Shown one piece after another: positions 7,729 to 12,118 of a stretch of 64,000 bases of DNA. A model generated the notes under the pieces. It did not search any database. It saw only the letters and a list, made by a program, of their open reading frames with translations, and was not told the DNA's origin. Within the stretch, counting starts at the first letter, position 1, and each line of letters begins with the position of its first letter. This DNA is from Candidatus Heimdallarchaeota archaeon. Its GTDB lineage: Archaea > Asgardarchaeota > Heimdallarchaeia > Heimdallarchaeales > Heimdallarchaeaceae. The stretch spans positions 1-64,000 of the forward strand of contig JAAFKI010000094.1 of NCBI GenBank assembly GCA_021399345.1, read 5' to 3'. The position numbers and the translations under genes were made by a program.

Positions 7729-10029
7729 TCAATTGCTGAAAATTTCTTCAATGTAGCTTGATAAACTAGTTCTTTCTTCAGAATTTAGCGATTGATTGCT
7801 TCGAATAGCATTTTCAATCATTTTTTTAATATCTTTATTTGAATCAACAATCTCAATAAATTTGTTTAATTTTTTGATCCCATTGTAAGATTTACCTATG
7901 AAAATATAACTAACATAAATTTTGTTTACTTCATCAATTAAAAATGTAAATTCCTTATTCTTTACTCTCACCTGCTTCTTATCTACTGAAGGAGAGAAAG
8001 TATTCTTGATTGTTAATAGTACTTCATCGTATATTCTTTCCCCCAAATTCTCGTCAAAATATCCAGAATAAAGGATTATTCCATCTTGTGATTGCATGAG
8101 AAACATTACTGGAAGTTCAGATTCACTTTCGACTTCAGGTCCTAAGGCAGATCTTCTTCCTACTATTTGTTTTAGTCTATCTTCAATATGTGATAATTCT
8201 AATTTCTCTGCTATTGTGGGCAATTTCATTGTGAAGTCCTCCCACAAATCTATTTGATCTAACAGGTTATCATGCTCATTCGAGATTTTTATTGCTATTT
8301 TTATAATACCCTTTTCTTCTGCTATTTCTAGTGCTTCTGTTAAAATATTTTGAGCTTCGTCTACTTTAAGTTCAACAAGAGCAAATTCAGCTTGAAGAAG
8401 CATTACTTCAACAAGTAAAGCGAAAGAATTTTGTCTTTTAGCTATACTTTCAAGGTTATTGAGGTGATCACTAACCTCTTCTAGAAGACTCTCTTCACCA
8501 GTTTTACACATCTCCCAAATTAGGATTTCGGTTAGATTAAGTAAAGATTCAATTGTAATCATGTAGTCTACTACTTCTTCTTTTGCTAATTGTTCAAGAA
8601 ATACTGCAGACTTTTGGATTTCTCTTTCATTTCCTGTTCTTTTTAGAAATAAGGCTTCTGATAATCTGTATAATTGTGCAATATTCTGGTTCTCAGTTTC
8701 CTTTGATAGAGTAAGTAATTTTTTCAGAAATCCTTCGGCTATTTTATTTAGTTTTAAGTCTAGATTGATCTGAATCAAACTCTTAAGTGAATATGAGACA
8801 AGATATACCTTCTTTATCTGTTCTCTTAATTGTAAACTTTGAAGAAAGGATTTTGATGAACCTTCCAGATCACCTTTTTGTTGTGATAGATTTCCAAGAG
8901 CATAATATAAATTACTTAGAGTTTCCAATCTTTCATATTCAATAGCAATCGGTAATGCTTTTCTGTAATTTTCCTCTGCTTCATCTAATTCACCTTTGAG
9001 GGAATATATTTTTCCAGTTTCGTACAAAGCTATTGCTATAGCATTTTGATCATTATGTTCTTCCTTAATTCGATAATATTCTTTCAAATTTTTCAGTGAA
9101 ACTTCGTAATCTCCCATATCACGATTTATTCCTGAAATATCAAGAATGGCTTTTGCTTCTTCGTGAACTAAATTCTTGCGTTCATAAATCGTCTTGCTCT
9201 TTAAATAATTTTCAAGGGCTTTTTCTTGGTTCCCTGAATGTTTGTAGATGTAGCCCATTCTATGGTGTACTAAGGCAAGTGAGGCTTCATCTTCTAATTC
9301 TTCAAATATTAACAGAGATTTACTTACTGTTTCTAAAGCTTGACTTAAAATTCCCTGATTGTAGAACATTCCTGCTTTACTCACATAATATTCTGCAAGA
9401 GGACGTTTATATCCCAAATCAGTAAATATTTCAAAACTTTGATCCCAAAAACTATTAGCAGTATCATATTCTCCTAAGTTGAAAAGTGCTTTTCCAGTCC
9501 ATAAAAGACTATCAGCGATTCCATATAAATCTGGAATTTTTCTGTTCTCCTTTAAACTCTCTTCAAAGAAATCAATTGATTCAAAGAATTTGCTAGTTAA
9601 GACATAGTGAATACCCTTAACCATATTAAACTGGGCATTTCTTCTAATATAGTTCTCACTACCTCCTCGTTTGAATAGCGTTAATGCTTCTTCTACCTGA
9701 GCTAGATTATCATCACAGAGTTCACTTTGTCTGATATTACTGCAAATTAGTGCTTTTTCTAAAAGAATATCAATATGGTAAAAGCTAATATCAAGTTCTT
9801 CGATATCTTCCAGCAGTTGTTCACATAGTAATTGGGCACCATCAAATTCTTTAGCTGCAACTAGAATTGACAGTTTTTTAATGTTGAACTTTAAAATCTC
9901 CTCTGGATTAAAATTTTCATGCCAAAGATTTTCTAGAGTATCTTCTATTCTCTCTAGTGCAGCTGCAAATCTTCCGTCTTTATAGAGATTTTCCACCTCT
10001 TCAAGAATTTCGTCTGTACCCTCTGACAT
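7729..10029 (-). CDS. tetratricopeptide-repeat protein with C-terminal longin-like domain
   Basis: Many TPRs (e.g. LALVHHRMGYIYKHSGNQEKALENYLKS); C-terminal PVMFLMQSQDGIILYS..FTFLIDE..YVSYIFIGKSY. Start MSEG at 10029. Confidence 0.85.
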   Translation of the reverse strand: MSEGTDEILEEVENLYKDGRFAAALERIEDTLENLWHENFNPEEILKFNIKKLSILVAAKEFDGAQLLCEQLLEDIEELDISFYHIDILLEKALICSNIRQSELCDDNLAQVEEALTLFKRGGSENYIRRNAQFNMVKGIHYVLTSKFFESIDFFEESLKENRKIPDLYGIADSLLWTGKALFNLGEYDTANSFWDQSFEIFTDLGYKRPLAEYYVSKAGMFYNQGILSQALETVSKSLLIFEELEDEASLALVHHRMGYIYKHSGNQEKALENYLKSKTIYERKNLVHEEAKAILDISGINRDMGDYEVSLKNLKEYYRIKEEHNDQNAIAIALYETGKIYSLKGELDEAEENYRKALPIAIEYERLETLSNLYYALGNLSQQKGDLEGSSKSFLQSLQLREQIKKVYLVSYSLKSLIQINLDLKLNKIAEGFLKKLLTLSKETENQNIAQLYRLSEALFLKRTGNEREIQKSAVFLEQLAKEEVVDYMITIESLLNLTEILIWEMCKTGEESLLEEVSDHLNNLESIAKRQNSFALLVEVMLLQAEFALVELKVDEAQNILTEALEIAEEKGIIKIAIKISNEHDNLLDQIDLWEDFTMKLPTIAEKLELSHIEDRLKQIVGRRSALGPEVESESELPVMFLMQSQDGIILYSGYFDENLGERIYDEVLLTIKNTFSPSVDKKQVRVKNKEFTFLIDEVNKIYVSYIFIGKSYNGIKKLNKFIEIVDSNKDIKKMIENAIRSNQSLNSEERTSLSSYIEEIFSN

Positions 10030-10187
10030 ACAGTTAGCCCTCAAACAAAAATGTATTTCTCATTCTTAAATATAAAATGTTACCTTCATATTATATACTA
10101 AATATATAAACGGGGGAATCTCTTTATATAGGTGTTGTAAAAAACATAATATTGTCGGTTCAACCTTTATCCTAAGCAGGAATTATC

Positions 10188-10886
10188 ATGAGTGTAGATA
10201 AATATATAGAGAAATTTGAAAATACTGGCGATGTTCTTTCTCTTATTTCTGAGCTAAAGAACAAGAATCCCAGAATTATTTCAAAAACAGTCAATGCTCT
10301 TATCAAGATTGGTGAACCAATTATTGATCCATTGATTACTGCACTCAAAGATGAGGATAAAGATATCCGTTTTGTTGCTTCTAAAGCTCTAGCAAAGATT
10401 GGCTCTAATGCTGTTCCACAACTAATTGCTGAATTGGGCAATTCTCAGAGCAAGGTTAGAGTCTGCGCAGTTGAAACTCTTGGAAAAATAGGTAACAAAC
10501 GCGCTATAGAACCTCTGATAAACACACTCAAAGATGAAAAAGAAGACGTAATCGTCAGAGAATATGCTGTTTATGCTCTAGAAAAAATAGGTGAACCTGC
10601 TGCAAAATTTTTGATTACAGCTCTAAGGGAACTTAAAGATCCTGAAGCTATTACTCCTCTAACTGCTGCTCTACATTATAATAAGCAAGAAGTAAGAGAA
10701 GCGGCTAATGAGGTTGTACTAAATTTCGGATTTTCATACCAAGGTTATAGAGATGTTAAGTCAATAATTCAACGTGATGCCGATGGCATTCCCTCAACTC
10801 CTGAGAAAGCTGAAGGGATATTATGGAGTAAGATAGGGAATGAATATAGACGTTATAGACAAAAAAGAATAACTGACTTCTTCTAA
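10188..10886 (+). CDS. HEAT (PBS-lyase-type) repeat protein with C-terminal PIP-box
   Basis: Repeats such as PLITALKDEDKDIRFVASKALAKIG; ends QKRITDFF. Confidence 0.9.
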   Translation: MSVDKYIEKFENTGDVLSLISELKNKNPRIISKTVNALIKIGEPIIDPLITALKDEDKDIRFVASKALAKIGSNAVPQLIAELGNSQSKVRVCAVETLGKIGNKRAIEPLINTLKDEKEDVIVREYAVYALEKIGEPAAKFLITALRELKDPEAITPLTAALHYNKQEVREAANEVVLNFGFSYQGYRDVKSIIQRDADGIPSTPEKAEGILWSKIGNEYRRYRQKRITDFF

Positions 10887-10963
10887 TATAAGCTGTTGAT
10901 GACTTTTTAGAATTTAGAATCTTTGATTTGCAAATTCAATGATTGCAGTGATTGGTGATAAAA

Positions 10964-12118
10964 ATGATTAAAGAATTAGAGAAAAAGGATTACAAGAAAA
11001 TTAGGCATCTATTTGAAGATAGAGATTATGTTAATAGTTTTAGAAGTCATCTTGAAAGAACGCCTATAACAAAAAGAGTTCTAGTTGATGATACCAATGA
11101 CCCACAAACTGCAGTTATTGTTGTACCACCTAGATTATTTGTTGGAGGAAGAGCTGACAACGAAGAATTTAATCAAGGACTTAGAAATTACATTCATGAA
11201 GTACTAATTTCTGAATATAAGAAGAGAAATTTCAGTGAAGTTGATTTCTATTTTAGCAACGATCAGTGGGAATTAAACTTACCGATGATGTTGGAAGATT
11301 CATTCCATTATGACAGATATTATTATGAGATAAAAAAACTTAAGCAGGAAGATTGGAAGAATCTTATTCCTGAAGGCTACTCAGTAGAGCCTGTTGATTT
11401 AACTCTTCTAAGAAAAACTTATCTCAAAAACTTTGATTGGTTGATAGGAGAAATTCTAGAAAACTGGGAACCCTTAGAAGAAGGTTTGAAGGAAAATAGG
11501 GGTTTTTATTTAGTAAAAGAGGATGATGAAATAGTTGCATGGTGTACAACCGAATATCTTACAGAAACAAATGATATTGAAGTAGGTATAGCTACAAAGT
11601 CAGAATATCAAAGAAGGGGTTTTGCATCCATTGTTGGATCAGCTACAGCTGAATATTGTCTTGCAAGATACAAGTCTGTGGGATGGCATTGTACACAAAG
11701 AAATGTTGGGTCATTTAAGACAGCTGAAAAAATCGGTTTTGAAAGAATAATGGAATACAGAAAAGCTTCATATGTGTTTAACAAAGTAGATCTTTGGGTT
11801 ATCAAAGCTTATTTTGCTAGAATGGATGAAAATTATCCTGAAGCAATTGATTTTTACAATCAAATCATTGAAGCTTCTCACGATTAGACAGTTGATTTTA
11901 AAGAGTCTTATTATATTAATAGTGATTTTCCCATTAAACGTGTATATTTTAGGATAAGTAGCTGTTATGCAGCTATTGAAAACAAAGAAAAATCTACAGA
12001 ATTTCTAGAAAAGGCTATATCTAATGGATATAAAGATAAAGAACAGTTTCTAGATAGTGAATTTTTAACCAAAATATTAGAAGAAAATGAAAAGGTAAAA
12101 TATTTAGAATCTATGTAG
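10964..12118 (+). CDS. GNAT acetyltransferase with C-terminal TPR, interrupted by an in-frame TAG at 11885-11887
   Basis: IATKSEYQRRGFA and SFKTAEKIGF; after the TAG the frame continues 76 aa (YFRISSCYAAIENKEKSTEFLEKAISNGYKD). GGTGA SD precedes ATG 10964. Confidence 0.8.

Follow-up and report, generated by a model that had tools for sequence, protein, structure and literature searches.

A conserved HEAT-repeat protein with a C-terminal PIP-box as a predicted PCNA partner and putative clamp adaptor in a heimdallarchaeial family

The gene, its product and its neighbours

The window analysed here is a stretch of 64,000 nucleotides, positions 1 to 64,000 of contig JAAFKI010000094.1, from a heimdallarchaeial MAG (GCA_021399345.1; 3.27 Mb in 199 contigs, 33% GC, 88.6% complete). 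According to the open reading frame list and its translation, the gene of interest lies on the forward strand at 10188..10886, where 232 codons, beginning with ATG, are followed by a TAA stop. Its product of 232 aa, referred to in the following as the HEAT-PIP protein, starts with the sequence MSV(D/E)KYI common to the 31 aligned orthologues and is built of four successive parts. Residues 13–184 (10224..10739, +) form a HEAT solenoid of the PBS-lyase type, as delineated by Pfam, the AF2 model, structure matches and the orthologue alignment. It comprises about 5.5 repeats of about 31 aa each, of which repeats 2–3 (residues 75–138) are the best conserved in the alignment. Pfam matches over residues ~18–175 were clear for HEAT_2 (87.7 bits, cut-off 27.7), HEAT_PBS (67.7 bits, cut-off 20.9) and HEAT (46.1 bits, cut-off 23.5), and no catalytic family was found among them. 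The solenoid is followed by a variable linker (residues 185–210; 10740..10817, +), which is probably disordered given its low pLDDT, indels and low column identity, and by a basic flank on the N-terminal side of the PIP-box (residues 211–224, ILWSKIGNEYRRYR; 10818..10859, +), delimited from the model and the orthologue tails and closing with RRYR at residues 221–224. The PIP-box itself, QKRITDFF (residues 225–232; 10860..10883, +), is read directly from the sequence; it satisfies Q-x-x-[ILM]-x-x-[FY]-[FY] and occupies the extreme C-terminus, with the stop codon following immediately. An exact C-terminal PIP-box at 10860–10883 behind RRYR had already been reported in a sequence-only reading of this DNA, together with a HEAT fold and no visible catalytic domain. 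The translation gives the same motif at the same place, and Pfam, Foldseek, a PDB profile search and VIA-align all agree with the assignment of the fold.

Upstream of the gene, the sequence TTTATATA at 10123..10130 (+), 58 nt 5' of the ATG and within a 143-nt divergent intergenic region, is a possible archaeal TATA box as read from the sequence. Similarly, a T5 run at 10904..10908 (+), 18 nt past the stop codon, is a possible archaeal oligo-T terminator; a real one would make the gene monocistronic in this genome. Hairpin terminators were not detected, and a scan for sigma-70 promoters and terminators, which is bacterial and does not apply to archaea, yielded nothing above shuffled sequences.

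The divergent upstream neighbour at 7729–10044 (−) encodes a TPR protein of 771 aa (TPR_12 and TPR_MalT) and is kept in the closer relatives; the C-terminal ~150 aa of this protein gave no Pfam match. Directly downstream lies a GNAT gene (PF12746) at 10952–11887 (+), the reading frame of which is closed by a TAG behind codon 311. In related genomes, the orthologues are 387–405 aa long (390 aa for one that is 89% identical) and run on into TPR repeats; the copy in the window is therefore either a truncated or misassembled one, or one that is read through. Part of the genus retains the arrangement of TPR, HEAT and GNAT genes, and within the genus these genes travel together with those for a DUF2229 protein and an aminotransferase; the neighbours differ around the more distant orthologues. 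In about 8 of 19 loci, the GNAT-TPR gene is the next gene downstream and has the same orientation; in one, it overlaps with the stop codon of the HEAT gene. It is missing beside the HEAT-PIP genes of the three closest relatives, and it was not found in two genomes whose HEAT protein is 97–98% identical (G094 and G009) or in either genome of the sister genus (g9), all of which have the HEAT-PIP gene. As a required partner, the GNAT-TPR protein was therefore rejected, and it stays a weak lead. Among the loci examined, no neighbouring gene was obligately linked and none encoded an SMC or kleisin protein.

Distribution of the gene and conservation of its tail

The distribution of the gene was analyzed in 201 genomes sampled across the phylum. 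Full-length matches (profile positions 1–236, E 1e-94 to 1e-119) were obtained only within the family to which the window belongs, namely in 13–14 of the 16 genomes of its genus and in both genomes of the sister genus. Outside the family, the search of these genomes returned only generic HEAT matches over the repeats. In addition, the orthologue alignment was used for a profile search against 1.84 billion representative sequences. Here, the matches were giant multi-repeat HEAT proteins and a single orthologue (P0011); since scores add up over repeats, giant proteins come out on top, and this search is uninformative about the distribution of the tail.

For the analysis of the tail, 31 full-length orthologues (45–95% identity) were aligned with the protein of the window. 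In all 32 sequences, a motif of the form Q-x-x-[ILM]-x-[DE]-[FY]-[FLVIYW] is found at or near the C-terminus, and Q225 is invariant. Position 8 of the motif is aromatic in 19/32 sequences and L, V or I in the other 13. The position two residues before the glutamine is aromatic throughout except for a leucine in one orthologue, and positions −3 and −4 are basic in most. The TD at motif positions 5–6 is not universal, with NE, VD, AD, SE and others occurring in its place. The sequence leading up to the motif is far more variable: mean column identity is 0.46–0.54 over residues 185–224 and 0.54 in the linker (residues 185–210), which also carries indels, compared with 0.73 in the HEAT part. The same search also retrieved 64 HEAT proteins of comparable length that are not orthologues, and not one of them has a PIP-like tail. 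The retention of the PIP-box while the preceding 40 residues vary argues that the tail is not a product of chance.

An independent view of the motif was obtained from a census of all open reading frames of at least 80 aa (3,715) in the genome using the strict pattern Q..[ILM]..[FYW][FYW]. The internal rate of this pattern was 5.5e-5 per position. Eight reading frames carried it no more than one residue from their end (0.41 expected, an enrichment of about 20-fold), and 13 carried it within the last 18 residues (2.2 expected). Besides the HEAT-PIP protein, the eight terminal carriers are FEN1 (tail QKSLDAFFG), PolB (C110:22838-26728, −; 1,296 aa, tail QKSLDSWFG), a Hel308-type helicase (QKLLDDFFS), a Y-family polymerase (QKTLTQFF), an MBL/beta-CASP protein (C169:213621-214649, +; QTILDSFF), a DUF72 protein (C59:25177-26040, −; QQKLADFFG) and a DUF2797 protein (C115:27102-28010, −; QKSLSEFF). 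The consensus of these other carriers is QK[ST]L[DTSA]xFF, into which QKRITDFF fits. Given the enrichment and the identity of the carriers, a terminal PIP-box singles out DNA-transaction proteins in this genome with high specificity.

From the census, the DUF72 and DUF2797 proteins are probably clamp clients as well, judged by their tails. The MBL/beta-CASP protein, which resembles the ligase-associated DNA-damage-response exonuclease (TIGR04122, 138.6 bits, under the cut-off), and a PD-(D/E)XK protein of 185 aa (a weak match; C169:140112-140669, −), in which QSKIADFF lies five residues short of the end, are candidate PCNA-coupled nucleases. Neither a HEAT gene nor mutS-mutL was found beside the DUF2797 gene, the neighbours of which are sugar-nucleotide, aminotransferase and RNase E/G-like genes. 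The PolB gene contains a LAGLIDADG-type insertion, probably an intein.

These data bear on the reading that this is a generic HEAT protein with a PIP-like ending that has no clamp function and is conserved for another reason, for instance as the helix on which some other partner docks. Motif searches are known to yield false positives, and the flanking context matters (PMC6881253); chance would account for about two of the 13 motifs in the last 18 residues, and the neighbouring genes show no replication theme. On the other hand, such a reading has to accommodate the conservation in 32/32 sequences with an invariant glutamine, a tail that fits the terminal consensus seen in FEN1, PolB, the Y-family polymerase and the Hel308-type helicase of the same genome, a positively charged flank and the docking result described below. 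Altogether, we consider it very improbable.

Predicted docking on PCNA and the surface of the solenoid

The genome encodes a single PCNA (one PCNA_N match) of 261 aa on contig C115. The PCNAs of the genus are only 19–31% identical to those of other families of the same order, and one genome of the genus (G015) contains a second, divergent PCNA-like gene with 23% identity. The PCNA of the window's organism was aligned with 19 relatives and co-folded with residues 190–232 of the HEAT-PIP protein and their orthologue alignment. The median ipSAE was 0.86, compared with 0.52 for the best control, and passes the mark of the tool; the same mark is attained by 58 of 80 solved complexes and by 2 of 110 mismatched pairs. 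Three runs shared at least 81% of their contacts, but the pLDDT of the partner was only 62–66. The contacts on PCNA comprise residue 41, residues 44–48, residues 125–132 in the interdomain connecting loop, residues 231–232 and residues 248–257 in the C-terminal tail, which together make up the canonical PIP site. The pairs with the least expected error join tail residues 224–230 with PCNA residues 44–48, 206, 232 and 248–253, and residues 211–212, 214–217 and 221–224 of the flank also contact PCNA. The score of 0.52 came from a control in which the tail was kept and PCNA was replaced, so the tail is sticky in the model. PIP–PCNA complexes are abundant among solved structures, and the result may therefore partly reflect memory of such complexes. 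The model thus supports the docking mode of QKRITDFF rather than demonstrating it. For the sequence-only reading, which had proposed conservation of the tail among homologues and a co-fold with the organism's own PCNA as checks, both came out in its favour. Taken together, sequence and model make it very likely that the HEAT-PIP protein binds PCNA.

The full-length AF2 model (mean pLDDT 77, pTM 0.73) shows the solenoid over approximately residues 13–180, with pLDDT values of 83–96 over 41–180. Confidence drops to 47–66 in the linker before the motif and below 50 at residues 192–199. DSSP assigned a small beta-hairpin at 211–224 (strands 211–216 and 219–224) and a short helix at 228–231. PIP-boxes form a 3-10 turn, and the modelled helix is as expected. 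In the model, the PIP-box is thus presented at the extreme C-terminus behind a flexible linker.

Comparison of the orthologue profile with the PDB gave alphaReps (E 1e-99 to 1e-20), Mth187 (1e-12), CpcE (5e-10) and DOHH (1e-7). In both Foldseek and VIA-align, alphaReps ranked first, with VIA-align Z scores of 11.6 for CpcF and 11.1 for YibA further down. The repeat register is that of the alphaRep/Mth187 family; Mth187, alphaReps, CpcE/CpcF and YibA share repeat type and register with the HEAT-PIP protein but have no PIP tail and no known link to PCNA. HEAT-like arrays of ~230 aa can be DNA glycosylases, as in the AlkD family, and glycosylases are typical PCNA clients. One alternative is a clamp-tethered enzyme or DNA binder, in which the solenoid would act on DNA or a small molecule in its own right, either as a glycosylase of the AlkD/AlkC/AlkF type or a branched-DNA binder, or else as an enzyme resembling CpcE/F (lyase) or DOHH (hydroxylase). 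VIA-align indeed lists the AlkD-related chain 3zbo_A (Z 8.2, rmsd 5.3, 175 residues aligned) and DOHH (Z 7.9) as well as CpcF, and invariant cysteine, glutamate and two tyrosine residues lie on the concave face. However, 3zbo_A occupies rank 24 among many unrelated solenoids, and its score is within the noise of the tool for helical repeats. PF08713 (DNA_alkylation) gave no match at E<=0.01, and AlkD, AlkC and AlkF chains were absent from both the PDB profile search (E<=1) and the Foldseek top 50. The HEAT part as a whole has a net charge of −1 and a pI of 6.0, which speaks rather against a basic DNA-binding groove as in AlkD. DOHH carries four His-Glu metal-binding motifs on its HEAT repeats; the HEAT-PIP protein has a single histidine (H163) and no His-Glu dipeptide, and the di-iron site is thus absent. 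The NCBIfam lyase models remained far below their cut-offs (CpcF 58.6 bits, cut-off 220; CpcE 43.9 bits, cut-off 330). An AlkD-type glycosylase, DOHH and a phycobilin lyase were each rejected on these grounds, and an enzymatic or DNA-binding role of this general kind seems distinctly unlikely.

The concave surface, in turn, provides information on a possible ligand. In alphaReps, positions 18, 19, 22, 23, 26 and 30 of the 31-residue repeat vary and form the concave binding face (PMC3754942). Of the corresponding positions in the HEAT-PIP protein, nine of about 17 are at least 90% conserved, namely K58, D59, S88, C93, E96, K100, E125, Y126 and Y129. This fraction of ~53% compares with a background of ~35% in the HEAT domain and represents a modest excess. 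A fixed, specific ligand would leave such a pattern, which directs attention to repeats 2–3. As positions that are variable in alphaReps are largely fixed in repeats 1–3, we infer one specific client.

A putative clamp-tethered adaptor and its precedents

Based on sequence and model, the reading we favour is that of a PCNA-tethered, non-enzymatic HEAT adaptor with a putative client, which we consider probable. In the proposed mechanism, QKRITDFF would occupy the hydrophobic pocket beneath the interdomain connecting loop in one of the PCNA subunits, and the basic and aromatic flank RRYR would lie against the acidic C-terminal tail of PCNA (…PRIEESEEIED). Owing to the flexible linker of about 25–40 residues, the HEAT solenoid would be free to swing above the front of the ring and serve there as a scaffold of the alphaRep/Mth187 type that binds peptides or proteins. 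The solenoid would hold one specific conserved client, which would in this way be brought to forks or repair patches where the clamp is loaded on DNA. While bound, the tail would take up the PIP site and thereby compete with other PIP clients. Further points against the adaptor reading are the following: no replication or repair gene was a conserved neighbour in any of the loci examined, and motif position 8 is L, V or I in 13/32 orthologues.

In a further alternative, the protein is a PCNA blocker or regulator: its high-affinity PIP-box would hold the bulky, inert HEAT domain in place on the front of the clamp and thereby exclude polymerases and nucleases, as for p21 in eukaryotes or TIP of the Thermococcales. 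The absence of a catalytic domain would suit such a role. p21 (QTSMTDFY) and Cdt1 (QRRVTDFF) share with QKRITDFF the core Q-x-x-h-T-D-F-[FY] and basic flanks, a combination linked to strong PCNA binding; PIP affinity increases with TD at positions 5–6 and with positive charge in the flanks, both hallmarks of the tightest PIP-boxes (PMC6881253), in agreement with the sequence-only reading, which had taken the TD as a mark of high-affinity motifs and had pointed out the basic stretch. TIP is a non-enzymatic archaeal PCNA binder and proposed inhibitor (PMC4929162), and its distribution is lineage-restricted like that of the HEAT-PIP protein. A blocker, however, needs no conserved concave surface such as that formed by S88, C93, E96, K100, E125, Y126 and Y129. 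Moreover, neither p21 nor TIP is a folded repeat domain, both being small or disordered, and many orthologues end in weaker-looking motifs, for example QKQMTDFV or QKTLVDFI. We therefore regard this alternative as unlikely, though it is the foremost among those considered here. In a PIP-degron (CRL4-Cdt2), the TD is accompanied by a basic residue four positions beyond the motif (+4; PMC6881253); the TD is present in the HEAT-PIP protein, but a +4 residue is impossible here, as the chain ends at F232.

The adaptor reading can be compared with the non-core archaeal PCNA partners NucS, NreA/NreB and TIP (MacNeill 2016, PMC4929162). Like NucS, NreA and TIP, the HEAT-PIP protein is lineage-restricted and attached to the clamp by a C-terminal PIP-box, an attachment that is predicted in its case, and the docking mode is the same in the co-fold. 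It would also share the lack of enzymatic activity with TIP, and NreA has no known activity. In contrast, none of the three is a HEAT or alpha-solenoid protein or has a sequence relationship to the HEAT-PIP protein. TIP is small and a proposed inhibitor, NucS is a nuclease, and NreA, with about 400 aa, is nearly universal in archaea, whereas the HEAT-PIP protein occurs in two genera of one heimdallarchaeial family.

A eukaryotic precedent, which the sequence-only reading had missed, is the cohesin loader Scc2/NIPBL, a HEAT-repeat HAWK protein with an extreme C-terminal PIP-box that is recruited by PCNA (Psakhye et al. 2023, PMC10497406). Both would be HEAT-repeat proteins that lack catalytic activity on DNA and carry a PIP-box on a flexible C-terminus, and in the case of Scc2 the cargo is recruited behind the fork. 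However, Scc2 is a hook-shaped protein of ~1500 aa that acts with Scc4 and cohesin, compared with 232 aa and about 5.5 PBS-type repeats here. The likeness is one of function only, with a generic HEAT fold in common, and no link to SMC or kleisin proteins was detected. By this analogy, Heimdallarchaeia might already couple a HEAT scaffold to the clamp, the HEAT-PIP protein being a counterpart of Scc2/NIPBL-like adaptors by function and conceivably also by descent; we would give this idea only a slim chance. If true, a chromatin, SMC or protein-modifying factor would be brought to newly replicated DNA. A weak candidate for such a cargo is the downstream GNAT-TPR acetyltransferase, which recalls PCNA-bound Eco1.

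Overall, the interpretation given by the sequence-only reading is supported by the computational analysis. That reading also knew of no described archaeal protein of this kind, and our search of the full-text literature, the coverage of which is incomplete, likewise found no description of an archaeal, Asgard or heimdallarchaeial HEAT-repeat PCNA partner. PIP-box clamp partners are a known class, in which the HEAT-PIP protein would represent a new family; unusually, a protein-binding scaffold is all that it carries. The PCNA interactome defines events at archaeal forks and repair sites. Few archaeal PCNA partners other than the core enzymes are known (NucS, NreA and TIP), and we found no description of such partners in Asgard archaea. 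In the organism of the window, the genome-wide PIP-box census flags the DUF72 and DUF2797 proteins and the two nucleases as further putative clamp clients. In eukaryotes, adaptor-mediated clamp layers are common (Scc2, CAF-1, p21). A conserved clamp partner that consists of nothing but a protein-binding solenoid would imply that clamp traffic in the lineage closest to eukaryotes has an indirect layer, mediated by adaptors.
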